Shown: positions 4,189 to 17,992 of the stretch, one piece after another
Position numbering within the stretch: the stretch's first letter is position 1
How the letters are laid out: the number at the start of each line of letters is the position of its first letter
The notes under the pieces: generated by a model
Told to the model about the DNA's origin: nothing
Databases searched by the model: none
Seen by the model: the letters and a program-made list of their open reading frames with translations, nothing else
From: Candidatus Latescibacterota bacterium
GTDB taxonomy: Bacteria > Latescibacterota > UBA2968 > UBA8231
DNA length: 64,000 bases
Reading direction: 5' to 3'
NCBI GenBank assembly: GCA_965221775.1
Contig: CBDCSU010000005.1
Coordinates: forward strand, 1,088,001 to 1,152,000
Position numbers and translations under genes: made by a program

Positions 4189-4760
4189 GCCGCGGGAGTC
4201 CCGCCATGGGGAAGGCAGGCATCGCCCTTCACCGGGCGGCGGGTGCTGCGAGACCGGGAGCCACCGGCGCTACGAGGGGTTCCGCCATGAGGAAGGCAGG
4301 CCTCGCCCTTCGCCGGGCGGCGGGTGCTGCGCGACGGGGAGCACACCGGGGCCACCCCCGGCCGCTTCGTGCGGCCCTGGAGCTGAGCCGCCAGGAGTCC
4401 CGCCATGCGCAAGGCAGGCATCGCCCTTCACCGGGCGGCGGGTGCTGCGAGACCGGGAGCCACCGGCGCTACGAGGGGTTCCGCCATGAGGAAGGCAGGC
4501 ATTGCGCTTAACCGGGCGGCGGGTGCTGCGAGACCGGGAGCCACTGGCGCCACGAGGGGTTCCGCCATGGGGAAGGCAGGCATCGCCCTTCGCCGGGCGG
4601 CGGGTGCTGCGAGACGGGGAGCCACCGGCGCTACGAGGGATTCCGCCATGAGGAAGGCTGGCATTGCGCTTCGCCGGGCGGCGGGTGCTGCGAGACGGGG
4701 AGCCACCGGCGTTACGGGAAGTCCCGCCATGAGGAAGGCTGGCATCGAGCGCCGGGCGGC
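4120..4760 (+). repeat. Tandem array of 81-bp units, plus one 118-bp unit, at a gene junction
   Basis: CCGCCATG unit starts at 4201, 4282, 4400, 4481, 4562, 4643, 4724; 4320-4386 recopies the deacylase 3' end including its stop. Confidence 0.95.
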
Positions 4761-7743
4761 GGCCCTGCTCTGGCTCTGGGCGGGAGGCGCCGGCGCCGGC
4801 GAGGCCTTCGTCACCGTCGATCTGACCGACCTCTACCACGGCCGCTTCATCGGCGCCGACATGGGCGACGGCTACCGGATCGCCGAGGGGCAGCTGCCCG
4901 CGGCGGGCTCCCGCGTCGAGATCGGGGGCATCCCCTTCCACATCGGCACGCGGGAGGGCGGCGACCACCTGGACGTGGGCCTGGCCCGCTGGCCCGATGT
5001 GGAGGAGGACCCGGTGGGGTTCTACTCCCACTACCAACCCGACGGGTACGGCGATCCCGAGTGCCCGGTGGTGCGCATCCCGCGGCAGAACTACTCGGGG
5101 CTCTACCTGCTCTGCCTGGCCGACACCGATCCCGCGAAGACCCCGGTGGTCTCCTTCCGGCTGGGGCTGCACGACGGCCACGGGATCCTCTACGACAGCG
5201 GCGTCACCGTGCCCCGGTGGGACGAGCCGGACAACGAGCGGGTCCTGGCCCACCGGCCGCTGCGCCTCACCGGGGAGGGTGGAGAGAAGGACGGGCGGCT
5301 GTTCGTGGTGAAGGCGCCCCTGCGTTCGGGGGACATCCAGGACATCGCCGAGCCGGGGGACCACCTGGACTTGGAGCTGACCAAGGAACTGCACGTGGCG
5401 GTGCGCAATCCCGACCCGGCGCGGTTCCGCGTGCGCCCCCTGGGCCGCCGCAGCGCCGTGCGCGTGGTCGCCCTCACCCTGGCGGTGGCGCCGATGCAGA
5501 TGCGGGTCTCTTCGGCGGAGGTGGGGAACGTCTTCGTGGCGCAGCCGCCGGTCTTCTCCGCGGCCCTGCGGAACATCACCTCTCAGCCGCGGCGGGCCCG
5601 GGTGGAGGCGGTGGCCACCGACTACTATGGCCGCGAGACCCGCACGCGGGGGAGCCTGCTGCTGCCGCCACTGGCCGCCGACACCCTGCGCCTGGAGCTG
5701 CCCCGGGAGACGCTCGGCTGGTTCGAGGTCGTCTTCCGCCTCCTCGACGGCGAGGAGGTCTCCGTCGAGCGCCGCACCACCTTCGCCCTGCTGCCCGAGG
5801 ACCGCCGGCGGGCGACCGTCCGGGACTCGCCCTTCGGTATCTGGTGCTTCGGCAAGGGCCACCGCGGCACCACCGTCGACCAGGCCGGGCCGCTGATGTA
5901 CAAGGCGGGGATCCGGCGCACCTTCGGCTTCGGCTACGAGGCGCTGCGGGAGCACGGCCTGACGAAGGGCCAGCACTCCAGCATCGTGGGCACCCACAAG
6001 GTCGGCGAGACGGACACCGAGGCCCTGCGCCGCACCTTCGAGGCGTGGCCGGAGACGCGCCAGGCCCTGGTCTTCCACGAGAGCAACATCGGGCTGCTGA
6101 AGACGCGTCCGGGGTTCCTGACGGGGGACGGACCGGCGCCGCTGGACTCGGCGGAGACGGCGGAGCTGGAGCGGCGCTGGGAGCACGCGGTGGCGGCCAG
6201 CGAGGCGGTGCGGCGCATCGACCCGGAGATGGAGCTGGTCTTCGGCAACATGGTGCAGCCCTCCATCGAGCAGTTCCTGGCGCGCGGGTATCCGCGTGAG
6301 CTCATCGACCGCCTGGGAGAGGAGTCCCCCGGCTTCATGCGCATGCCCGAGCGCCAGCCCGAGGTGGCCGGCTTCGGCAGCCTCTGGTGGATGAAGGAGA
6401 TGGCCCGCCACTACGGGTACGGCGACGTGGGGCTGGCCGTCTCCTTCGAGTGGATGTACCACTCCACCAACCCCGGCAACCTCCACCCGCGCACCGCCGC
6501 CGCCTACAACGTCCGCGACTGCCTGCTGGCCCTGGCCTACGGCGTGCCCCACGTCAACCCGGCCCTCGCCTACGACGTGGGCAACGCCTACTACTTCTCC
6601 AACTGGGGCGCCTCCGGCCTCGCCCACCGCCCGCCCGAGCTGAACCCCAAGCCCGGGTACGTGACCTACGCCACGCTGACGGCTCAGCTCGACCGGGCCC
6701 GGTTCTCGCGCAAACTGGACACGGGCTCCACCAGCCTCTTCGCCCTCGAGTTCACCCGCCCCGAGGGCGGCCCGGTCTACGCCCTGTGGACGATCCGCGG
6801 CGAGAGGGAGGTCCGCCTGTCCGTGCGCGGCTCGGGGCCCGCCCGGGTGACGAACGGCAGCACTCCTGCGGCGGCGCCCGCGGACGGCGAGGTGACCGTC
6901 GACGACGACGATCCACCGCGTAACGTCAGCGGCCCCGCGGCGGCCCTGGTGACGGACGGCATGGGCAACAGCTTTCCGGCGGATGTCGCGGACGGCGAGG
7001 GGGTCGTCCTCGTGGATGATTCACCGCGCTACCTCAGCGGCGTCGAGGTGATCGCGGTGAAGGCCGGGGCCTCGCGCTACACCGCGGCGCCCGGACCCCG
7101 GGCCGTCCTGCTTCACGACTTGAACGACCCCGGCGCCTGGCGGGTGAGCGCCCGCCGGGATACGGCCTTCGAGAACTACACCTGGGACGTGCTCCGCCGT
7201 CCGGGGCGTCTGTCCTGGAGTTCCGTGCAGGACCCCGAGCGCGGCGCCGTGACCCGCGTGGCCCTGGACGGACCCCAAGGCGGCCCGGACGTGACCGCCT
7301 GGTACAACTACTCCGAGCTGGACGAGCCCGTCCCGCTGCCGGGAGAGCCGCGCCAGATCGGCCTGTGGGTCCACGGCAACTCCAGCTGGAGCCGCATCGT
7401 CTTCGTCCTGGAGGACGCCGAGGGCGAGGAGTGGACCCACCTGGGGGCCGCCCTCCACGGCCGCGCCGACTGGAACACCAACGACACGGAGAGCACCTCC
7501 TTCGTCAACTTCGACGGCTGGCGCTACATGGGGATCGACCTGCCGGGGGAGCATCCCGTCGACCGCTACCAGTGGCCGCGCAAGTGCAACTGGCGCGCCA
7601 CCGGCGGCGACGGCCTGGTGGACCACCCGCTGCGGCTGAAGGGGTTCTACGTGCAGCTGCGGGAGAAGCTGGTCTACATCGACGAGATGGTGCCGGCCAC
7701 GAGCCGGCACCTGCTGCTCGACGACCTGATGTGCTCCTACTGA
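4729..7743 (+). CDS. Large secreted glycoside-hydrolase-like protein (TIM barrel plus Ig/CBM-like domains)
   Basis: Last repeat ATG is followed by a signal-like 'AAALLWLWAGGAGA'; 'SPFG', 'FHESN', 'LNPKPGYVTYA'; in-frame upstream ATGs back to 4405. Confidence 0.6.
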   Translation: MRKAGIERRAAALLWLWAGGAGAGEAFVTVDLTDLYHGRFIGADMGDGYRIAEGQLPAAGSRVEIGGIPFHIGTREGGDHLDVGLARWPDVEEDPVGFYSHYQPDGYGDPECPVVRIPRQNYSGLYLLCLADTDPAKTPVVSFRLGLHDGHGILYDSGVTVPRWDEPDNERVLAHRPLRLTGEGGEKDGRLFVVKAPLRSGDIQDIAEPGDHLDLELTKELHVAVRNPDPARFRVRPLGRRSAVRVVALTLAVAPMQMRVSSAEVGNVFVAQPPVFSAALRNITSQPRRARVEAVATDYYGRETRTRGSLLLPPLAADTLRLELPRETLGWFEVVFRLLDGEEVSVERRTTFALLPEDRRRATVRDSPFGIWCFGKGHRGTTVDQAGPLMYKAGIRRTFGFGYEALREHGLTKGQHSSIVGTHKVGETDTEALRRTFEAWPETRQALVFHESNIGLLKTRPGFLTGDGPAPLDSAETAELERRWEHAVAASEAVRRIDPEMELVFGNMVQPSIEQFLARGYPRELIDRLGEESPGFMRMPERQPEVAGFGSLWWMKEMARHYGYGDVGLAVSFEWMYHSTNPGNLHPRTAAAYNVRDCLLALAYGVPHVNPALAYDVGNAYYFSNWGASGLAHRPPELNPKPGYVTYATLTAQLDRARFSRKLDTGSTSLFALEFTRPEGGPVYALWTIRGEREVRLSVRGSGPARVTNGSTPAAAPADGEVTVDDDDPPRNVSGPAAALVTDGMGNSFPADVADGEGVVLVDDSPRYLSGVEVIAVKAGASRYTAAPGPRAVLLHDLNDPGAWRVSARRDTAFENYTWDVLRRPGRLSWSSVQDPERGAVTRVALDGPQGGPDVTAWYNYSELDEPVPLPGEPRQIGLWVHGNSSWSRIVFVLEDAEGEEWTHLGAALHGRADWNTNDTESTSFVNFDGWRYMGIDLPGEHPVDRYQWPRKCNWRATGGDGLVDHPLRLKGFYVQLREKLVYIDEMVPATSRHLLLDDLMCSY

Positions 7744-7828
7744 TCTGCGAGCCGGGTCCGCCCGACGGGGGCAACAGCGCCCCTGCGCGGCCGATCCGCC
7801 CGGCGCCTCGCAAGCGTCGGGGGCGTCG

Positions 7829-9067
7829 CTACTTCCCGTGGAAGCGGGAGTCGGTGAAGTTGAAGACCGCGGCTCCCGGCGCCTCGACCTCCAGGATCTC
7901 GGTGCCGGTCCAGCCGCTGTACTGCTTGCCCGGCAGGATTCCCAGCAGGGCGACCACCACCGACCGGGCCGGCATGTCCGCCTCGCCGCTGGCCCAGACC
8001 TCGCCCCCCTCGCCCGGAGTCCGCAGCCGCGCCTTGACGCCCCGGGCGTCCTGCTGACCGAGGTTCATCATCAGCAGGCGCACCGTCGGCGGATCCCGCA
8101 TGGTGCCCCAGTCGCCGCCGTCGTGGCCGGAGTGGAAGTACGGGAGGGCGAACTCCGACGAGCAGAACACCGCCGGCCCCTCGTAGCGCCGGGTGAACGC
8201 CTTCCCCAGCTCCAGCAGCTCGGGCGTAAGCCCGCTGCCGTCGGTGGGCGTCTCCAGGAAGCGGCCGCAGATCCCGTCGAGCTGCTCGTCGGTGAGCGGA
8301 CAGTTGTTCTCCTTCAGCTTCCACCTGCCGAAGAACCCCACGCCGGGCGACTCGGGGGCGACGAAGCGGATCAGGCGGACCTGTTGGTCCAGCTCCTCCG
8401 CCGTCTGGGTCCAGCGCCAGTCGCCCTTGTCCGCGGCCTCCTTGCCCAACCCCAGGGCCACCACGGATCTGTCGAGGAGGCCGACGAGACGCGCGGCCTG
8501 AAGCTGAAAGGGGATCATCCACGCGTCGTTGAGGTCGAAGTAGGTCTCCAGCAGGACGAGGTCGACCGTCTGCCGGTAGACCGCCGCCAGTTCCGGCGCC
8601 ACCGGGCCCCGCATCTGCCAGACCGTGATCCCCAGCTCCGGCCTCTTCTCGTGCACGGCCGTGAGGATGGCGGCCGTGTGCCGGTCGATGCCGCCGTCGT
8701 AGTCCCAGCCGAACTCGTCGATGTTGATCACGGGGTTGGGATTGTCCCCGAAGTCCATGTTCGCCAGGACGTCGGAGGCTTCGTCGACGGGCTTGCCAAG
8801 GAAGTTGTAGTGGACCACGCCCTCCGAGACGATCCCGCCCCTGGCCTCCCAGTGCCTCCAGTCGCCGCCCCGGGTGAAGGTCTGCGAGGCGAGTTCCGGG
8901 TAGGCCCCGTAGAAGGCGATCACCTTCTCCAGGCCCATGACCTTCCCGGGGCTGGGGCTGGTGCCGGTCGAGGCGCTCTCGGCGGACACGGTCTCAGCTC
9001 CCTGCAGCGTCAGGATCGACAGACAGATGCACCGCCACAGGGATGGCGGGCGCCGGCTCTTCTTCAT
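7829..9067 (-). CDS. Secreted hypothetical protein (possible GH-like barrel plus C-terminal Ig-like domain)
   Basis: Signal peptide 'MKKSRR...CICLSILTL'; GGAGG upstream; 'INIDEFG' motif. Confidence 0.6.
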   Translation of the reverse strand: MKKSRRPPSLWRCICLSILTLQGAETVSAESASTGTSPSPGKVMGLEKVIAFYGAYPELASQTFTRGGDWRHWEARGGIVSEGVVHYNFLGKPVDEASDVLANMDFGDNPNPVINIDEFGWDYDGGIDRHTAAILTAVHEKRPELGITVWQMRGPVAPELAAVYRQTVDLVLLETYFDLNDAWMIPFQLQAARLVGLLDRSVVALGLGKEAADKGDWRWTQTAEELDQQVRLIRFVAPESPGVGFFGRWKLKENNCPLTDEQLDGICGRFLETPTDGSGLTPELLELGKAFTRRYEGPAVFCSSEFALPYFHSGHDGGDWGTMRDPPTVRLLMMNLGQQDARGVKARLRTPGEGGEVWASGEADMPARSVVVALLGILPGKQYSGWTGTEILEVEAPGAAVFNFTDSRFHGK

Positions 9068-9085
9068 GGGGCGCCTCCCAAAAGG

Positions 9086-9440
9086 GATGGGGGACCGAGC
9101 GAGGTCCGAGACAAGCGGCCTGCCCACCTCGGGAGGGGCGGGCACCGCATGGGCTGATGGGGAACCGGTGCGAGGTCCGAGACAAGAGGCCGTGCGAACC
9201 TCGGGCCGAGATACCGCTTGGGCCGGGGCACCGGAACGAGAGCCGCGGCAAAGCGGTCGTGCCGACCCCGGGATGGCAGATACCGTACTGGGCTGATGCG
9301 GAGGGACGGAACGCGGGGTTCGGGAAACTGTCGTACCGCGCCCGGGGATGGGGTGGGTACCGTATGGGCTGATCGTGGGAGGTGCGGCGAGAGAGCTGTG
9401 CCGGCCAAAGCGGTGAGTCGACCGCCATGGCGTCGGGCGA
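9086..9440. repeat. Degenerate tandem array, about five units of about 70 bp
   Basis: Units start near 9086, 9156, 9225, 9295, 9371; shared GCGAGGTCCGAGACAAG in the first two; ACCG(C/T)..TGGGC(T) unit ends. Confidence 0.7.
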
Positions 9441-9479
9441 AGCGCCGGAGCCCGGGCGGGCGCCGGCGGCCGGACGGCC

Positions 9480-9641
9480 TTACCGCTCCTCGCGGTAGAC
9501 GACGTGCTTGCGCACCGTGGGATCGTACTTCTTGATCTCCAGGCGGCCCTGCTGGTTGCGGCGGTTCTTGGAGGTGTAGTAGCGGTGGTCGCTCTCGGTG
9601 CTCTTCAAGGCGATCTGATTGCGGGGGCCGCTCTTGGCCAT
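9480..9641 (-). CDS. rpmG: 50S ribosomal protein L33, Cys-less form
   Basis: [29 protein letters not shown]...[20 protein letters not shown]. Confidence 0.97.
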
Positions 9642-9733
9642 GGCATTGCTTCCGGTGGGAGGTTTGCTGTCCTGAGCCGACAGAAGATACACGGATGGCC
9701 CGAATCCCGCTATATCCTCGGCGGCGGCGGCCC

Positions 9734-10621
9734 GTGAGCGGCCTGGCGCGCGGCGGCGCCCTGCACGCCCTGGCGGCGGTGCTCCTGTGGTCGACGGTGG
9801 CCTCCGCCTTCAAGCTCTCCCTGCGCGAGCTGTCGCCGCCGCAGCTCGTCTTCGCCAGCAGCCTCGTGTCGGCCGCCTTCCTCGGGACCGTCCTCGCCCT
9901 GCAGGGCCGCCTGCCGGAGCTGCTCACCCTGCCCCGCCGCCAGTGGCTGCGTTCCGCCGGCCTCGGGCTGCTCAACCCCTGCCTCTACTACCTGGTCCTG
10001 CTGGAAGCCTACCACCGGCTGCCGGCGCAGCAGGCCCAGGCCCTCAACTACACCTGGGCCCTGGTCCTCGCCTACCTGTCGGCCCTGCTGCTGCGCCAGC
10101 GGCTGCTGCGCACCGACGTGCTCGCCGGCTTCATCTGCTACGGCGGCGCCCTCGTCGTCGCCACCCGCGGTCACCTCCTCGAGCTGCGCTTCGACGACGG
10201 CCTCGGCGTCGCCCTCGCCTTGGGCAGCACCCTGATCTGGGGCCTCTACTGGGTCGGGATCACCCGCGATCCGGTGGATGCGGCGACGCGGCTGTTCCTC
10301 AACTTCCTCCTCGGACTGCCCTGGGCGGCCCTGGTCTGCGGCCTGCGCGCCGACTTCGCCTTCGGCTGGAAGGGCTGGGCCGGCGCCGCCTACGTGGGCT
10401 TCTTCGAGATGGGCCTCACCTTCCTCCTCTGGCTCGCCGCCCTGCGCCGCGCCGGCAACGCCTCCCGCGTGGCCAACCTGATTTTCCTCTCCCCCTTCCT
10501 CTCCCTGGTCTTCCTGCACCACCTCGTGGGGGAGAGGATCGAGACGGCCACGCTGGTGGGTCTCGCCGTCATCGTCGCGGGTCTGCTGATCCAGCGGCGG
10601 GGGGCGGCGCGGGGGCGGTGA
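9734..10621 (+). CDS. DMT/EamA family transporter
   Basis: About ten TM segments; '[10 protein letters not shown]', 'YVGFFEMG', '[10 protein letters not shown]'. Confidence 0.9.
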
Positions 10622-10864
10622 GGCCCGCCGGCGGGGGCGGCAAGGGCGGACGCTTCGCGGATGCTGGCTGAGGGCCCTTGCCTTTTTGGCAGTGACACGT
10701 AGGTTATTCGCCTGAACCTCGTGCTCTGATGCCTTGTGCATCTCTTCCGATTCCGAGCCGCCTTCTGGCCGGAAATCCTACGGGTTCACCATCTGACGCA
10801 GGCGCTTGGCGCCTGAATCAGTTGGTTCACACAGGATGCAGTTTCGCCAAGTAGAGAAAGAGGA

Positions 10865-12580
10865 ATGGGCAAAGCTGAAGAGGGCCGCTCCGGCCTTGTT
10901 GATTTTCCAAACGATCCAAGAGAGTTAGAGACACGCCAGATCCAGGAGTGCCTGCGCGATGCGGGCTTCTCCTCGGAGGACCAGGACTGGCTGCTGCGCG
11001 TCCTTGCACGCCCGGACTGCTTTGGGAGTACTGCACGCGACGCCGCATTCAAAGAGGGCTTCGTGGATACCTTCGAGGGCGTCCTGCGGCAGATTCTGGA
11101 TGGGACGAAGCCAGAGGACCGTCAGACCCGCCTGGCCATCCTGTTCGGCTTCATGCTCAACTGTGGTCCGGTCTACTACAGGGAGGAGCTTCGCCCCTCT
11201 GTCGAAGGATCCTGGGCAACCGAATTCCGGAGGCAGGCAGGGTTCTGTGCGCGAAGTCTGGACTGGCATACCCTCGACGCAATGAAGGACTCCTCGTCCT
11301 TCCTGTTCGCCAAGCTGATTCCACATCTCTTCCCTGATGGTCTGCCGTTGACAGAGGTCGTCAACCTCGATGCCCTCGATCCCGTCAAGCGAACGGAGTG
11401 GTCCAGCAGTGACTTCAGGGACCCTGGAGCTCTCGAATTCTGGCTGATCTGGCGCTTTCGCAATGATGAGGAGCATCGCGGCACGGTCAACCTGCGCACA
11501 CTGCTGCCGGCCTTTGTCGATCTTCCGCCAGAGGTCCTGGGGGAAAAGCTGCTAGGTCTCCTGAACGCCATCGACTATGCGCTGAACATTGCGAATGCCA
11601 GGAGTACCGCTGGACTGGATCCCATGAATCGAGGATGGCGACTGGTTGCCCGCGAGTTGACTCCCTTCCTGGAGCTCTTGCATGAGAAACAGCCCCACTC
11701 GCACCGGGAACCGTCGATCCTGCTCAAGGCATGGTGGGCGCTGGCCGTAAAGGTTCACGGCCGTAGCATGGGGGGGCTGGAAGAGGAGCTTTCCCCCGAA
11801 CGGAGAGACCAACTCGTTGAGAGTGCAGCCAAGCAATTCGGCCTTCTGCGCAAGGTATTGCGGGAATCGCCCGAACATTTCGCGGGCCAGGATTGCACCG
11901 GCCAGGTCTCCGACTTCTACCACGAGGCATTCCGCGTGCTGCGCATCTTCGCCCCCCCGTGGAAGCGGCTGAAGCCCCTGCTGCTGGTCTTCACCGGAAT
12001 GAAGATCCCCGCAGTTGCCCCAGACCTGCGCCCTTGGTCCGAATCGGGCAGAGAGCCCCCGCCGCATTCATATAGTCGGATACCTCTGTGGATCGCAATC
12101 AGCATGTATCCCCAGTATCTCCAAGATGAACTCAAGAGGGACCCCTACCTGCACGGCCTGCGCGAAGAGTTCGCCGCATTCTGTCTCGGGCGTCTCAAGA
12201 CAGACGCCGAGGCCAAGTTCGTCGAGCCTCGACCCTACTGGCGTCAGTCCTACGTACGGGCCTTGGCGGCCTTGCGCGTCAACCCCGGAGGCCGGGCGCA
12301 CCGGACCGTATTCTGGCTGCTCAACAACGATCCGGACGAGACGGTCCGCGCCTATGCCAAGAAGGCGCACAAGAGAATCCGGCACCTGGACCGCAAGAAA
12401 CCCAACCTGGATGACGGTGCCTCGCCTCGCCGCCCCCTCTTTGAGGCATTCTGGTGGCTCCGTCAGGCCCACCTCCTAACCCTCGGGATAGAGATTGATG
12501 CCGCAGGCGCCATGCGGACGCGCCGCAAGGAACTGCAGCGTACCCGGGAGAAGGATGACCGCCCCCGCTGGGAAGGGTAG
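10865..12580 (+). CDS. Uncharacterised alpha-helical protein, 571 aa (C-terminal HEAT-like segment)
   Basis: Long ORF with AGAGGA RBS and atypical codon usage; 'YVRALAAL...NDPDETVRAYAKKA' looks HEAT-like. Confidence 0.75.
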   Translation: MGKAEEGRSGLVDFPNDPRELETRQIQECLRDAGFSSEDQDWLLRVLARPDCFGSTARDAAFKEGFVDTFEGVLRQILDGTKPEDRQTRLAILFGFMLNCGPVYYREELRPSVEGSWATEFRRQAGFCARSLDWHTLDAMKDSSSFLFAKLIPHLFPDGLPLTEVVNLDALDPVKRTEWSSSDFRDPGALEFWLIWRFRNDEEHRGTVNLRTLLPAFVDLPPEVLGEKLLGLLNAIDYALNIANARSTAGLDPMNRGWRLVARELTPFLELLHEKQPHSHREPSILLKAWWALAVKVHGRSMGGLEEELSPERRDQLVESAAKQFGLLRKVLRESPEHFAGQDCTGQVSDFYHEAFRVLRIFAPPWKRLKPLLLVFTGMKIPAVAPDLRPWSESGREPPPHSYSRIPLWIAISMYPQYLQDELKRDPYLHGLREEFAAFCLGRLKTDAEAKFVEPRPYWRQSYVRALAALRVNPGGRAHRTVFWLLNNDPDETVRAYAKKAHKRIRHLDRKKPNLDDGASPRRPLFEAFWWLRQAHLLTLGIEIDAAGAMRTRRKELQRTREKDDRPRWEG

Positions 12581-12726
12581 ACCGGGCAGAGCCCATCGCA
12601 TCACAGGCCAGGAACTCTTGCCTTACTCAGGTGTCACCCATAGCGGAATCAACTCGTCGGTCCTCAATTGGGAAGAATGGTGTCCCCATGAGCCGACAAA
12701 TCCCAATAGGAAAGGAGGTGATAAGG

Positions 12727-12891
12727 ATGGCCAACTCTGGTAGCGAACGCAGTCAAGCTGATCTTGACAATCGCGCCAATCAGCTGAATTCCAATAACGA
12801 TGCTTATTGGCAGTCGCGAGAGCACGAGCAGAGACCCGATGATTGGGAATCTCGCGAGACTCAGGACTCGGCAGAGTCCGACAGTGGTTGA
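12727..12891 (+). CDS. Small acidic N/Q/D-rich protein, 54 aa
   Basis: Strong SD AAAGGAGGTG before the ATG at 12727; 'RSQADLDNRANQLNSNNDAYWQSR...RPDDW'. Confidence 0.7.
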   Translation: MANSGSERSQADLDNRANQLNSNNDAYWQSREHEQRPDDWESRETQDSAESDSG

Positions 12892-13057
12892 TCGATGATC
12901 TCTTGAGTTGATCAGCCCGCACTCTCGATGCGCCCACACTTAGCGCCTTGATAGCCGCACTCCTGATCTCTCTGAGATCGTGTAGGGCGCGTCCTTTCAG
13001 ACCACTGGGCGACGGCAATCTCGTCCCCACACAGGTCCTCTGCGAAAGGAGACCGCA

Positions 13058-13927
13058 ATGCACCGCCACGTAATTCTGAACGCGCCAACAGTCAACTTTC
13101 ACCTGCTGGCATCCTGCAACATGAGTTGCGGGTTTTGTTTCGCCACATTTCAGGACATCCCCGGCCTATCCTGGTCGAACCGGGAGGATGACGCGTTTGC
13201 CATTGTGGACGCGTTGTGCATGGCCGGCTTCCGCAAGATCAACTTCGCCGGTGGCGAGCCAACTCTTCTGCCTTGGCTGCACGAGCTGATCCAGCGGACC
13301 CACTCACACGGCGTTACTACCTCCATCGTGACCAACGGCTCTCGAATCTCCGGGGACTGGCTCGACAGCCTGGACGGCAGTCTCGACATCGCTGCGCTGA
13401 GCATCGATAGCGTGGCTGTAGAGACGCAGCGCAAGATCGGCCGGGTCGAGAAAGGCAGAGGCAAGGAGCCCTTGAGCGAGGCTCACTACCTGGCTCTGGG
13501 TGAGATGATCCGGGCGCACGGCATCCGCCTGAAGGTGAACACGGTTGTCAACAGGTACAACTGTGCCGAGGACCTTCGCCCGTTCATCCTGGCGATTCGG
13601 CCGGAGCGTTGGAAGATGTTCCAGGCCCTTCCGGTAGAGGGTCAGAACGACGGCCGCATCGCCGAAATGACGGTGACCGACGACGAGTTCCGATGGTACG
13701 TAGAGCGCAATCGCACCGTCGAAGACTGCGGAATCGCGGTCGTGCCGGAGAGCAACGAACTGATGACGGGCAGCTACGTCATGGTCGATCCGCGCGGCCG
13801 CTTCTTCGACAACACCCAGGGGCGGCATACCTACAGCAGGCCGCTCCTGGAAGTAGGCGTCGCCCAGGCACTGAACGATGTGGTGGTACATGTCGGCGGG
13901 TTTCAGGAGAGGGGCGGGCTCTACTAG
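13058..13927 (+). CDS. Prokaryotic viperin (antiviral radical SAM protein, pVip)
   Basis: 'VNFHLLASCNMSCGFCFATF', 'KINFAGGEPTL', 'KVNTVV', 'RWKMFQ..GQND', 'PESNELMTGSYVMVDPRGRF', terminal 'FQERGGLY'. Confidence 0.95.
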   Translation: MHRHVILNAPTVNFHLLASCNMSCGFCFATFQDIPGLSWSNREDDAFAIVDALCMAGFRKINFAGGEPTLLPWLHELIQRTHSHGVTTSIVTNGSRISGDWLDSLDGSLDIAALSIDSVAVETQRKIGRVEKGRGKEPLSEAHYLALGEMIRAHGIRLKVNTVVNRYNCAEDLRPFILAIRPERWKMFQALPVEGQNDGRIAEMTVTDDEFRWYVERNRTVEDCGIAVVPESNELMTGSYVMVDPRGRFFDNTQGRHTYSRPLLEVGVAQALNDVVVHVGGFQERGGLY

Positions 13928-13984
13928 TGACGGCCCCTCTGTTCCCCCTTTCGTACGATCGAGCGACGGGCGGGTGAGTGAGTA

Positions 13985-14025
13985 GCAAGAGACGTTCCGG
14001 CGGTCATCGTCGGGGCGTCTCTTGC
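13985..14025 (+). terminator. Long hairpin downstream of viperin
   Basis: GCAAGAGACG...CGTCTCTTGC stem extended by G-U pairs; no U-tract. Confidence 0.45.
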
Positions 14026-14065
14026 GCCCGCGCTGCCCGCCGGGCACGTCTGGAACGCCCAATGA

Positions 14066-14132
14066 ACCTCGTTGGCCACATGTCGGCCGGTCTTGCCGTC
14101 ATCGTCTCGGGACTGCTGATCCAGCGGTGGGG
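14066..14132 (+). repeat. Diverged copy of the DMT gene 3' end
   Basis: 14089-14132 matches 10559-10602 with 4 mismatches in 44 nt. Confidence 0.9.
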
Positions 14133-14181
14133 TGACCGCATCGGAGGCTCAGGGGCTTGTTCCAGCTTTACAGAGCCCTGG

Positions 14182-14200
14182 TGGTATCATACTGATACCA
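14182..14200. promoter_or_regulatory. Palindromic operator of an RHH antitoxin
   Basis: TGGTATCA-TAC-TGATACCA directly before the ATG, overlapping an extended -10 (TGgTATCAT). Confidence 0.7.
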
Positions 14201-14202
14201 GC

Positions 14203-14433
14203 ATGAAATCGGTACACATCCGAGGTATCGAAGCAGCCACCCTGGCGGCCCTCAAGCGCCTGGCAAGGTGCCGCCGGCGGTCGCTTCAAGAAGAGCTCCG
14301 CGCCATCCTCGAGCGCGCGGCGCGTACGGCCCCTCCCGAGGAGCAAGCCGACCTGAGCTGGCATACCGTGGAGACCGGGCGCCGCTCGCCCACCTGGTCG
14401 CGCAGCGAGACATACGACGATCGAGGCCGGTGA
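14203..14433 (+). CDS. FitA/Arc-like RHH antitoxin, orphan
   Basis: 'MKSVHIRGIE..TLAALKRLA...RRSLQEELRAILERAA'. Confidence 0.8.
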   Translation: MKSVHIRGIEAATLAALKRLARCRRRSLQEELRAILERAARTAPPEEQADLSWHTVETGRRSPTWSRSETYDDRGR

Positions 14434-14457
14434 GGCCGTCTTCGCCGATACAGCGCC

Positions 14458-16164
14458 GTGACACACCCAACCCTCTCCGACACCAACCTGCCCGCCCCTA
14501 TGCGCGACGGCACCGTCCTGCGCGCCGACGTGTACCGTCCCGACGCGCCGGGCGCCTTCCCGGTCCTGCTGTGCCGCACGCCCTACGACAAGAGCGCCCC
14601 GAGGCAGGTCGAGACCGGCCGGCGCCTGGCCGAGCGCGGCTACGTGGTCGTCCTCCAGGACGTGCGCGGGAGGCATGCCTCGGACGGCGACTTCCTCCCG
14701 GGGTTCTACAGCGCCGACCACCGCGACGCCGAGGACGGGTACGACGCGGTCGAGTGGGCGGCGGGCCTGCCGGGGTCCGACGGCCGGGTCGGCACCTTCG
14801 GCGCCTCCTACGACGGCTGGGTGCAGTGGGAGCTGGCCACCACCCGGCCCCCGCACCTGGTATGCATGCTCGCCGGCGGGATCGCGGCGAACCTGCTCGA
14901 CCGCGAGCTGGGCGGCGTGTTGCGTCTCGGCCGGGTCCTGGACTGGACGGTGAACAACCTCTCCGTCGACGCGGCCCGGCGCCGGGGGGACCGCTGGAAG
15001 GCAGCGACGACCGACGAGGCGTCGCGCCTGTGGGTCGAGCGCGACCGCGGCAAGTGGCTGTGGTACCTGCCTCTCTACGACATCCCCGAGGCGGCCATGC
15101 CGGGCATGCGCGGCCACTGGCGGCGCTGGCTCGACGACCACACGGCCGACCACTTCCGCTTCCAGGAACGCCACGCCGAGGTCGACGTGCCCGTCCTGAG
15201 CACGGTCGGCTGGTACGACCAGCAGATCGGCACGATCCAGCAGTTCACGGGGATGAGGGCCAACGGCCGGACCGAACGCGCCCGCGCCGGCCAGCGGCTG
15301 ATCATCGGCCCCTGGACCCACACCCTGGTGGACCTGGACCGCCGCGTGGGCGACGTCGACTTCGGGCCGCAGGCGGAGCGCAGCTACTTCGACATCGCCG
15401 ACGAGTGGTTCGGCCACTGGCTGAAGGGGGACGCGCCGGGCGAGCCGGAGCGGCCGCCGGTGGAGCTGTTCGTCATGGGCGCCAACCGCTGGCGCTCGGA
15501 GGACGACTGGCCCCTGGCGCGGGCGCGGGCGACCGAGTACTTCCTGCGCAGCGACGGACACGCCGACATGAGGGCCGGCGCCGGCCGCCTGTCCCGCGAG
15601 GCGCCGTGCGAGGAGCCGGCCGACGAGTACGTCTACGATCCGCGGGATCCGCTCATGACCCTGTACACGCCGGCGGGACAGCACGCCCCCCTCGACCAGC
15701 GGGCCCTCGACGGACGGCCGGACGTGATGGTCTACCAGACCCCGCCCCTGGAGCGGGAGGTGGAGGTCACGGGCCCGGTGGAGGTCGTGCTGTGGGCGGC
15801 CTCCTCGGCGCCGGACACCGACTTCGTGGCCAAGCTGATCGACGTCTGGCCCGACGGCTTCGCCCAGGAGCTGTGCCACGGCATCGTGCGCTGCCGCTAC
15901 CGCGACTCCCTGGACAAACCGTCCCCGCTGGAGCCGGAGCGGCCGTACGAGCTTCGCATCCGGGTGAACCCCACCAGCAACCTCTTCCGCCCCGGCCACC
16001 GCATCCGCCTCGACATCAGCAGCAGCGACTTCCCGAACTTCGACCGCAACCACAACACCGGGGGCGACGACTACCGGGAGGCGGAGCTGCGGACGGCGCG
16101 CCAGCGGATCTTCCACGACGCCGCCCGGCCCTCCCGACTGGTGCTGCCGGTGATTCCGGGGTGA
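14458..16164 (+). CDS. CocE/NonD family hydrolase
   Basis: 'PMRDGTVLRADVYRP', 'RTPY', 'QDVRGR', 'GASYDG', 'IGPWTH', 'GHRIRLDISSSDFP'. Confidence 0.95.
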   Translation: MTHPTLSDTNLPAPMRDGTVLRADVYRPDAPGAFPVLLCRTPYDKSAPRQVETGRRLAERGYVVVLQDVRGRHASDGDFLPGFYSADHRDAEDGYDAVEWAAGLPGSDGRVGTFGASYDGWVQWELATTRPPHLVCMLAGGIAANLLDRELGGVLRLGRVLDWTVNNLSVDAARRRGDRWKAATTDEASRLWVERDRGKWLWYLPLYDIPEAAMPGMRGHWRRWLDDHTADHFRFQERHAEVDVPVLSTVGWYDQQIGTIQQFTGMRANGRTERARAGQRLIIGPWTHTLVDLDRRVGDVDFGPQAERSYFDIADEWFGHWLKGDAPGEPERPPVELFVMGANRWRSEDDWPLARARATEYFLRSDGHADMRAGAGRLSREAPCEEPADEYVYDPRDPLMTLYTPAGQHAPLDQRALDGRPDVMVYQTPPLEREVEVTGPVEVVLWAASSAPDTDFVAKLIDVWPDGFAQELCHGIVRCRYRDSLDKPSPLEPERPYELRIRVNPTSNLFRPGHRIRLDISSSDFPNFDRNHNTGGDDYREAELRTARQRIFHDAARPSRLVLPVIPG

Positions 16165-17354: not shown

Positions 17355-17669
17355 TCAGTCGTTTCCGACGGCGGCCAGGGGCTGGATTCCCGCCAGGTCG
17401 GCTTCCTCCGCGCGTTGGGCGTGATACAGGTCCCACCGGGCCTGCAGGTTCAGCCAGAAGCCAGCCGTCATGCCGAAGAACCTCCCCAGGCGCAGGGCCG
17501 TGCCTGGGGTGATGCCGCGCCGGCGGTTGACCAGCTCATTGATCCGCTGGTAGGGCACGTGGATCGCGTCGGCCAGTTGCCGCTGGGTGACGTCCATCGG
17601 CAGGAGGAACTCCTCGAGCAGCATCTCGCCGGGATGGGTCGGCTCACGGTGGGTGGGGATGCGTGCCAT
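17355..17669 (-). CDS. higA: HigA family HTH antitoxin, orphan
   Basis: 'THPGEMLLEEFL...TQRQLADAI.VPYQRINELVN.RRGIT..TALRL.RFFG...FWLNLQ'. Confidence 0.9.
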   Translation of the reverse strand: MARIPTHREPTHPGEMLLEEFLLPMDVTQRQLADAIHVPYQRINELVNRRRGITPGTALRLGRFFGMTAGFWLNLQARWDLYHAQRAEEADLAGIQPLAAVGND

Positions 17670-17883
17670 CTCTCCGCTCGAAGTCCTCGTCATCGCCCAC
17701 GTCGGGCATCGCTCTGAGGTACTGCTCGAAGGACATCTCCGGCGACTTGGGTTCCGTGCCGAGGAGGGCCTCGCGCAGAATCGCCCGGTGCTCTTCCTCG
17801 ACGGAGCGGCCCTTCCGGCCGGCGCGCTCCTCGAGCCGGGCGACGACCTCCGGTTCCAGATTCCTGACGATGAGTCGTGCCAT
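17644..17883 (-). CDS. FitA-like RHH antitoxin, orphan
   Basis: 'MARLIVRNLEPEVVARL.ERA...GRSVEEEHRAILREAL...MPDVGDDEDF'. Confidence 0.85.
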   Translation of the reverse strand: MARLIVRNLEPEVVARLEERAGRKGRSVEEEHRAILREALLGTEPKSPEMSFEQYLRAMPDVGDDEDFERRDGTHPHPP

Positions 17884-17890
17884 GCGGACG

Positions 17891-17920
17891 AGTATGACAA
17901 CCCTTGTTGTCGTCCGTCAA
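17891..17920 (-). promoter_or_regulatory. Sigma70 promoter with operator; probably a leaderless transcript
   Basis: TTGACG-N18-CATACT, 7 nt before the ATG; GACAAC-N4-GTTGTC palindrome at 17896-17911. Confidence 0.65.
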
Positions 17921-17992
17921 TCCCGGCCGCCGCGAGAACCACTACCTTTCGCGGCTCCCGCTCCCCAGCCCCTGGACCAGGAGAGCACTCCC

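Follow-up and report, generated by a model that had tools for sequence, protein, structure and literature searches.

A viperin gene behind a conserved helical-protein gene with exchangeable enzymes and structured leader RNAs in Candidatus Latescibacterota

We analysed 64,000 nucleotides of a Candidatus Latescibacterota genome (contig CBDCSU010000005.1, positions 1,088,001 to 1,152,000; in the following called the window), in which three co-oriented genes stand on the + strand: gene A, coding for a 571-aa helical protein, gene B, coding for a 54-aa peptide, and pVip, coding for a 289-aa prokaryotic viperin. Comparison with A loci in other genomes indicates that A is the gene that stays constant in a module whose effectors are swapped. 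As three enzyme families replace each other behind it, A is not a viperin-specific partner. In the branch to which the window belongs, A and the enzyme genes are preceded by three conserved RNA elements with a predicted structure, here called E0, E1 and E2, which the original prediction, made from the letters of the window without database searches, had missed. Taken together, the chances are about even that the three open reading frames (ORFs) were acquired horizontally as a single module, one of a widespread kind that has not been described before.

One scan of a collection of species-representative genomes with A gave 69 loci (L001 to L069), most of them in Latescibacterota and Poribacteria and the others in Planctomycetota, Myxococcota, Verrucomicrobiota, Acidobacteriota and Spirochaetota. 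The ORFs of the loci were called by a simple greedy longest-ORF rule and then clustered, and the clusters were named via Pfam, PADLOC and NCBIfam. The first gene of a recognised family at most 1.2 kb downstream of A and on the same strand was counted as its partner. The count has 67 rows, 66 loci and the window; L063 (contains N), L060 and L069 (no clustered A ORF) were omitted, and the viperin rows of L037 and L050 rest on tblastn, the ORF caller having missed both. The gene after A was:

viperin, 24 of 67 rows
MBL/beta-CASP/RMMBL nuclease, 21 of 67 rows
B12-binding radical-SAM enzyme, 12 of 67 rows
none of the three families, 10 of 67 rows

The three enzyme families cover 57 of the 67 rows. 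The remaining ones are a contig end (L030), a locus in which a family-2 glycosyltransferase (GT2) follows the same leader (L033), four loci in Planctomycetota and Myxococcota and four in spirochaetes. In tblastn searches, viperin was found just downstream of A in 23 of the 69 loci, including distant homologues in Planctomycetota and Myxococcota. The original prediction had proposed a possibly undescribed multi-gene viperin system. What stands of this is that A is a genuine conserved same-strand neighbour of viperin, in the 23 loci, and that the arrangement is undescribed in the libraries and papers searched; A is, on the other hand, not specific to viperin. The pairing is kept over large distances, and A homologues of only 26–41% identity in Planctomycetota, Myxococcota and Verrucomicrobiota have viperin, the nuclease or the B12 enzyme directly behind them, with spacers between A and the enzyme of 26–135 nt in several loci of these distant phyla.

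The enzymes themselves have an antiviral flavour. Besides the membership of viperin in the pVip family, the B12-radical-SAM enzymes behind A match the PADLOC model PDC-M51A at 1e-88 to 1e-105, and the beta-CASP enzymes match the Cas14 model of type VII CRISPR below its cut-off (2.6e-88, score 297 as compared to a curated cut-off of 800) and archaeal aCPSF1 in the same way (2.7e-93, score 313, curated cut-off 580). A dTMP-kinase-like gene (PDC-M51B/VakA) lies behind pVip in four loci, L009, L011, L019 and L036, and in L045 the viperin is fused to a dTMP-kinase-like domain. Two enzymes are stacked in L009, L014, L019, L032, L039 and L040.

On a FastTree tree of A the partner label changes 29 times, as compared to a minimum of 3 and a shuffled mean of 35, and a value as low was reached in 2 of 200 shuffles. 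All three enzyme families are present in the well-supported clade of six rows that includes the window's A. Furthermore, the enzyme differs between loci whose chromosomal flanks are the same, L001/L005 as compared to L004/L007/L010/L024, and L008/L038 as compared to L009/L019 and to L014/L016, and L009 equals L008 with a pVip-kinase cassette set between two copies of E1. From the label changes and the identical flanks with differing cargo it therefore appears that the enzyme is swapped far faster than A diverges, and such a rapid exchange argues against a co-evolved interface between A and the enzyme and for a generic element between them.

A partner label distributed nearly at random over the A tree, with 29 changes where shuffling gives 35 on average, would also be seen if A were an independent gene and the DNA downstream of it a recombination site at which defence cassettes are swapped. 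The E1 and E2 leaders, brought along by each cassette, would then serve only mRNA stability or translation, and A and viperin would be unlinked. The repeated E1 and E2 at the bounds of the cassettes could provide the homology for recombination, and other cargo, the GT2 glycosyltransferase and a 497-aa protein, is found after E2 or E1. We regard this explanation as improbable, as 57 of 67 rows come from just three enzyme families, unlike what a general hot spot would give, as A and the enzyme remain neighbours in other phyla at 26–41% identity, where the spacers are short and the E elements absent, and as the window's A moved together with viperin inside one bounded island of 3.5 kb. A compact defence island of independent genes, the other possibility offered in the original prediction, is also less likely than one module.

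The features of the locus in the window are the following:

10559–10602, + strand: left copy of a direct repeat, 44 nt, within the 3' end of an EamA/DMT gene (9695–10621); candidate attL
10713–10859, + strand: E0, leader before A, the first ca. 83 nt (10713–10795) a predicted three-way junction and the rest running to the ribosome binding site (RBS) of A
10865–12580, + strand: gene A, predicted 571-aa all-helical alpha-solenoid protein, hallmark C-terminal domain at residues ca. 357–571
12659–12750, + strand: E1, following the stop of A, with a predicted hairpin (ca. 12659–12700) and, after a spacer, a strong RBS with the initial codons of a small ORF
12727–12891, + strand: gene B, 54-aa acidic small protein with a conserved NQLNPNN-type core
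12922–13065, + strand: E2, predicted three-way junction (ca. 12927–12993) and a CCUUUC stretch (ca. 12994–12999) pairing with the GAAAGG RBS (ca. 13043–13050)
13058–13927, + strand: pVip, 289 aa, member of the radical-SAM family of ddh-nucleotide synthases; here the exchangeable effector
14089–14132, + strand: right copy of the direct repeat, 91% identity to the left copy; remnant of the EamA 3' end; candidate attR

The RNA elements were found by iterative nhmmer searches over the loci and the window. All three are on the + strand, and they are present solely in the window and in the close A clade (L001–L042 and L067). E0 has 47 copies, in 42 loci and the window. In its junction, as predicted by RNAalifold, 16 of 19 pairs are compensatory and 95.1% of the cells are paired, as compared to 29–50% when the pairing partners are slid by 1–3 columns, and none of 500 shuffles reached the observed values. 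E2 lies directly before the enzyme gene, in the window before the ATG of viperin at 13058. A MAFFT alignment of 28 copies gave 93.6% paired cells (33–46% when slid) and 11 of 30 compensatory pairs, again with 0 of 500 shuffles reaching these values, and the helix between CCUUUC and the GAAAGG of the RBS is 86.7% paired in the same alignment. A covariance model of E2 (R1) found 40 copies, all on the + strand and only in the window and L001–L042, with none in L043–L069 or elsewhere in the window; in the model-fitted alignment, which leans towards the structure, 22 of 30 pairs are compensatory. The minimum-energy fold of the window's own E2 reproduces both the junction and the RBS helix (z = -2.58), and in the fold of the L011 copy the junction is present and the RBS helix absent. 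E1, with 46 copies in 36 loci and the window, has moderate covariation support, weaker than that of E0 and E2: its hairpin is 89.9% paired as compared to 41–63% when slid, and 7 of 12 pairs are compensatory. Many of the G-U pairs in the elements are valid on the + strand only, so the selected structure is in the transcript.

Searches of Rfam 15 at E<=1 gave no relevant match, neither in positions 10400–14500 of the window nor in L009, L011, L019 and L023, and the covariation thus far described indicates that E0, E1 and E2 are new conserved structured RNA elements. A scan of 10500–14500 for promoters and terminators gave one promoter-like site, with 0.8 expected, and no intergenic terminator. 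Two features of riboswitches can be recognised, a compensatory structure in E0 and E2 and a putative expression platform that competes for the RBS in E2. From its predicted pairing, E2 can mask the RBS of the enzyme gene. E0 and E2 may equally well be riboswitches or protein-binding leaders. E2 precedes pVip, beta-CASP, B12-radical-SAM and GT2 genes alike, and in the stacked loci E1 and E2 are repeated before each enzyme, the second copy of E1 standing before the second enzyme gene. The GT2 glycosyltransferase of L033 (9152–10362, 357 aa) begins exactly at the end of E2, which means that the leader is not restricted to the three main enzyme families.

Gene A belongs to a large and uncharacterised family. 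A word-indexed search gave 425 relatives; the best 120 of these are 56–95% identical over the full length and lack both Pfam domains and informative names. When a profile was made from the C-terminal 215 residues, it matched 499 cluster representatives (clusters of 50% identity), of which 307 had E<=1e-30. This hallmark domain is nearly always positioned C-terminally, in proteins of 530–670 aa. No Pfam domain was found in the eight longest relatives, and A itself matches no Pfam family at E<=0.01, the HEAT and ARM profiles included. A and B had no match in Pfam, NCBIfam, PADLOC or PHROGs.

The AlphaFold2 model of A, made from an alignment of 48 rows, is confident and all-helical (pLDDT 86.9, pTM 0.84), and the C-terminal domain modelled alone has a pLDDT of 91.2. 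Foldseek comparison of the full-length model with the PDB gave a weak likeness to armadillo, HEAT and karyopherin folds, with a best E of 3.8e-3 and a TM of ca. 0.2. At E<=0.001 there was nothing for full-length A in the PDB or among viral models, nor for the C-terminal domain in the PDB, where its best match has E = 0.45. A protein atlas search gave weak HEAT leads, with a score of 0.90 and recognition under the useful mark, and the A profile matched PDB sequences at chance level only (E>=0.34). Eleven residues are invariant over the 48 rows, P400, R433, E454, R460, A466, L470, H479, D489, A528, R533 and Q534. The conservation of charged residues among them would fit a site for binding or catalysis better than a featureless scaffold. 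A role of A as a recombinase was considered and dropped, as its basis was the invariant Arg, His and Glu alone and the modelled fold is a solenoid without a match.

A long alpha-solenoid, as modelled for A, is typically a fold that binds proteins. It is conceivable that A binds each of the enzymes, as an inhibitor, antidote, chaperone or scaffold, and keeps it inactive until infection, with the RNAs being secondary; by analogy, eukaryotic beta-CASP nucleases have HEAT-repeat scaffolds. The operons in distant phyla are tight, the C-terminus of A may be fused to or overlap the beta-CASP enzyme in L060, and BRAT1 in the INTS9-INTS11 complex is among the weak fold matches (E = 3.3e-2), which is a lead only. 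We find such an arrangement quite doubtful. Three structurally different enzymes are found behind nearly identical A proteins, in the six rows of one well-supported clade, which makes a specific co-evolved interface unlikely, and the sequence and fold comparisons give no sign of an interface. In L060, the match to the C-terminal part of A (7001–7939) overlaps the start of a 791-aa beta-CASP ORF (7840–10215) that is without a Pfam match in its first ca. 200 residues. Either A and the nuclease may be fused here or the reading frame may be shifted.

The island in the window is ca. 3.5 kb in size and its GC content is lower than that of the surroundings. In steps of 100 nt over 10700–13999 the GC fraction is 0.48–0.72, mostly 0.56–0.64, as compared to ca. 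0.70–0.75 in the flanks and ca. 72% in the genome around the island. The drop begins with E0 (10713), which is the start of the conserved unit, and on the right side GC is back to at least 0.67 from ca. 14300. The left repeat lies in a gene assigned to EamA by a Pfam match, and the right copy is located 160 nt beyond viperin, in a region (13925–14300, past the viperin stop) that has no relative in related loci. The description in the original prediction, of a block of atypical composition delimited by a duplicated DMT end, agrees with the low GC and the 44-nt direct repeat of 91% identity. Repeats of the 3' end of a target gene at both borders, as in islands borne by an integrase, are found in the window, and no recombinase, integrase or transposase was seen among A, B and pVip in Pfam and NCBIfam scans. 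Repeats around A and its cargo are also present in L007 (222 nt), L002 (32 nt) and L041 (96 nt), and in L007 the repeat duplicates the 3' end of an efflux-pump gene that lies upstream. On the tree the window's A is nested among Latescibacterota copies, the nearest being L002 with 73% identity. The foreign GC content, the bracketing repeat and this nesting therefore lead to the conclusion that the island was gained horizontally. The low GC, the repeats, the tree position of A and the L007 repeat also show that the module travels as one unit.

The A of L026, from Vicinamibacterales in the Acidobacteriota, is placed inside a Poribacteria clade on the tree, and this may be taken as a second sign, beside the window copy, of the module crossing phylum borders. 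An integron-like array was considered for the stacked cassettes and rejected: no recombinase domain is found in A, B or pVip, and the repeated elements stand at the 5' ends of the cassettes and not, like the attC sites of integrons, at the 3' ends. These elements include the RBS and are conserved in sequence.

The third gene of the island is by its sequence a bona fide prokaryotic viperin and an ordinary member of its family, as the original prediction had it. It scores 288.9 bits against NCBIfam NF038283 (viperin_w_prok), well above the curated cut-off of 180, and three PADLOC pVip models match at 3.4e-76 to 1.5e-87, one of them at 1.5e-83. Radical_SAM of Pfam matches at 2.4e-15. The cysteines of the CxxxCxxC motif, C20, C24 and C27, are invariant among 21 relatives, and so are N13, H15 and F26, in the wider N-x-H...C motif context of viperins. 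Its position behind the 571-aa helical protein and the 54-aa peptide with a strong RBS, all on one strand, was likewise confirmed by the ORFs and the GGAGG-type RBS. A ribosomally synthesised peptide (RiPP) operon, a peptide with a radical-SAM enzyme, was considered and dropped, as the peptide also precedes the nuclease and is replaced or decayed in many loci, and as the enzyme is a curated viperin.

The original prediction had also pointed to the absence of a nucleotide kinase. There is indeed no ORF for one at 13928–14088, and tblastn with three kinases from the loci found none in the whole 64-kb window at E<=0.01. The absence is uninformative and unremarkable, because only 12% of bacterial viperins are associated with a kinase according to Shomar et al. 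(bioRxiv 10.1101/2023.09.13.557418). Short ORFs past the viperin in L001 (10160–10408) and L005 (10196–10417) keep only the P-loop start of a dTMP-kinase-like protein, and appear to be decayed remnants of a post-viperin kinase.

If the enzymes had cellular purposes, the module could belong to nucleotide or RNA metabolism or modification, for instance stress-regulated RNA turnover or nucleotide modification, with E0 and E2 as metabolite riboswitches and the viperin-family enzyme in a role of the cell itself. Leaders that resemble riboswitches are a typical feature of metabolic operons, most beta-CASP RNases and B12-radical-SAM methylases have cellular roles, and the defence context of the flanks is weak and lacks a control set. 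Against this, the viperin is above the curated cut-off of an antiviral family, the B12 enzyme matches a defence-candidate model at up to 1e-105, and fast enzyme exchange at one site together with island transfer are hallmarks of defence genes and not of metabolic ones. A purpose outside defence is in our opinion very unlikely.

Gene B is a true small gene, yet an optional passenger of the leader region and not a defining partner. Its ATG (12727), which belongs to E1, is preceded by a GGAGG-type RBS, and a longer version starting at GTG 12631 (86 aa) is unsupported, as both the RBS and the ATG at 12727 are conserved. Differences from the window copy fall on codon positions 1/2/3 as 117/77/148 (nine ungapped pairs; one gapped pair was skipped), which can be read as a mild coding signature. 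B had been proposed together with A as a partner of viperin. Co-occurrence bears this out for A, and B is only loosely linked, with tblastn matches in 13 of the 69 loci and a family that is widespread elsewhere. The same start codon in E1 is used by an unrelated Gly/Arg-rich peptide in at least nine other loci, and several copies of E1 have lost the start of the small ORF or run into a stop after a few codons. It is this scattered presence, the replacement or decay elsewhere and the wide distribution of the family that make B an optional passenger. The family has 124 relatives of 39–88 aa with a shared NQLNPNN-type core, proteins of Pseudomonas and Acidovorax among them. Three of the relatives (P0136, P0140 and P0149) have the core twice in tandem within ca. 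70 aa, so the core unit is a repeatable module.

The explanation that we prefer is a constant A followed by an exchangeable enzyme of antiviral type, viperin in the window and a Cas14/aCPSF1-like beta-CASP RNase or a B12-radical-SAM enzyme elsewhere. In the branch of the window, in Latescibacterota and Poribacteria, the module would be wired by E0 before A and by E1 and E2 before every enzyme gene. E2 would hold the translation of the enzyme off until a signal releases it, and the release could come about through contact of A with the leader RNA or through a small ligand recognised by the E2 junction. Viperin would then make ddh-nucleotide chain terminators and stop phage transcription. A would be the invariant sensor or regulator and the enzyme the effector, and binding of A to the leader RNAs would explain why any enzyme that bears the leader can be plugged in. 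The synteny, the swapping of cargo, the RNA structures with their covariation, the membership in the viperin family and the borders of the island are supported directly by the comparisons; we infer a role in defence for the module, regulation by A and translational switching by E2. That the genes function together as a regulated module, in which A is a partner without catalytic activity, has, in our judgement, an equal chance of being right or wrong, and any specific step of the proposed working has a lower one.

Several observations weigh against this explanation. The A–enzyme pairs in distant phyla lack E0, E1 and E2, so the role of A cannot everywhere depend on these RNAs. To our knowledge, the prokaryotic viperins tested to date protect as single genes, which means that catalysis does not require A. 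Neither Pfam nor Foldseek comparisons with the PDB revealed an RNA-binding or enzymatic domain in A, and the fast swap of cargo, with A not co-varying, is also compatible with a hot spot of passive integration. The four spirochaete loci without any of the three enzymes have another context, an HTH protein and a transglutaminase/CAP protein. When 110 of the 299 dereplicated flanking ORFs of at least 150 aa were given to PADLOC, 13 of the 110 proteins matched at E<=1e-10, without a control set and with several generic models among those matched. The matches include HmaA, PDC-S01, PDC-S03, PDC-M07B, methyltransferases, kinases and a TnpB/Cas12f-like protein, and the defence context of the flanks is only suggestive.

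A bolder version of the preferred explanation would be a new class of immune module, in which an alpha-solenoid sensor and the riboswitch-like E0 and E2 gate the translation of swappable antiviral effectors, answering to A or to a small molecule derived from infection. We consider this rather unlikely. If it were true, E0 and E2 would be the first riboswitch-type controllers dedicated to anti-phage effectors, and the free swapping of toxic effectors behind one sensor would be explained.

A comparison with known systems shows what is familiar in the locus and what is not. As in the pVip and pVip-kinase systems of PADLOC and in NF038283, the 289-aa enzyme reaches the curated score and has the radical-SAM cysteine motif, and a kinase-like gene stands behind pVip in four related loci and is fused to it in L045. 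The window differs from the pVip-kinase pair in having neither an adjacent nor a fused kinase, and from pVip systems in general in that its enzyme stands, without a kinase, behind the gene of a 571-aa helical protein and a leader that could mask the RBS. No A-like partner of viperin is given in PADLOC or in the passages on kinases of Shomar et al. (10.1101/2023.09.13.557418). Ophion is an unrelated radical-SAM system (10.1101/2025.09.30.679545).

The PADLOC system PDC-M51 consists of M51A and M51B, and both are recognised in our loci, M51A in the B12-radical-SAM enzyme behind A and M51B in the kinase that follows pVip. The system is absent from the window, and unlike its definition the loci pair the M51A-like gene with A and E2 and are not defined by a kinase. 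No paper on PDC-M51 was found in the literature search. The beta-CASP enzymes of the sister loci match Cas14 of type VII CRISPR and archaeal aCPSF1, which is a precedent for an antiviral nuclease effector. The scores are, however, far under the cut-offs, the gene maps show no CRISPR array, Cas7 or Cas5, and the likeness concerns the sister loci and not the window.

In CBASS, Avs and Lamassu a constant sensor gene is combined with alternative, swapped effectors. The A locus is like these systems in pairing one conserved gene with rapidly exchanged effectors, and unlike them in that neither an NTPase or cyclase nor any other known sensor domain is found in A. A and the effector may be connected by a common leader RNA and not by a signal molecule or domain fusion. 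E2, with a multi-stem junction supported by covariation and a stretch that pairs with the RBS, resembles translational riboswitches and protein-binding leaders, and E0 has a similar junction. Unlike translational riboswitches, the elements have no Rfam 15 match at E<=1, and the genes downstream are defence-type enzymes and not a metabolic pathway.

Viperin itself is already known. No description of the family of A, of its combination with three types of effector or of the RNAs E0, E1 and E2 was found in the four profile libraries, in Rfam or in the literature searched (few subscription journals were covered, and preprint supplements may mention A). Prokaryotic viperins are generally regarded as single-gene defences, and to the question of how a cell restrains an enzyme that poisons transcription the locus offers a testable answer in the form of a conserved partner gene and a leader able to mask the RBS. 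Through guilt by association the module links viperin with two further effector families that use this partner and leader, the candidate defence gene PDC-M51A and a relative of the type VII CRISPR nuclease. Whatever comes after A and E2 is also a handle for the discovery of effectors. The module also adds an unannotated protein family of ca. 500 representative clusters and three RNA motifs that are absent from Rfam.

It was also possible to make some minor observations in the related loci. In L022 (10880–11091 and 11344–11429) and L023 (6002–6225 and 6498–6587), E0 and the first bases of A are repeated after the B12-radical-SAM gene, followed by a second E1 and a 497-aa protein without a match in Pfam or NCBIfam. 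This unit may be a fourth type of cargo or a decayed second module. A TnpB/Cas12f-like protein in L028 (5026–6156, - strand; PADLOC Cas12f models, up to 1.6e-59), 0.8 kb upstream of A, is probably the passenger of an IS200/IS605-type transposon. Toxin-antitoxin genes (HicAB, DUF4258) are seen near A in some loci. TPP riboswitches (RF00059) that exceed the gathering score were seen in two Poribacteria loci, at 958–1062 in L009 and 766–870 in L019; they lie 6 kb upstream of A and are unrelated to the module.

Some other genes can be seen around the island in the window. Just outside the right repeat, an ORF at 13978–14433 contains a FitA-like ribbon-helix-helix antitoxin domain (PF22513, 1.6e-07; 14205–14433, + strand). 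No evident toxin gene stands beside it, and the next gene codes for an S15 X-Pro dipeptidyl-peptidase (14458–16164). Two small ORFs on the - strand, 17355–17942 and 17644–17883, look by eye like antitoxin or HTH proteins, one with a start of ribbon-helix-helix type and the other with a HigA-like helix-turn-helix. Upstream of the island, an ORF of 1112 aa (4405–7743, + strand) opens with ca. four tandem units of 27 residues rich in Ala, Gly and Arg, which may be a genuine repeat or may result from a wrongly called start in GC-rich DNA.

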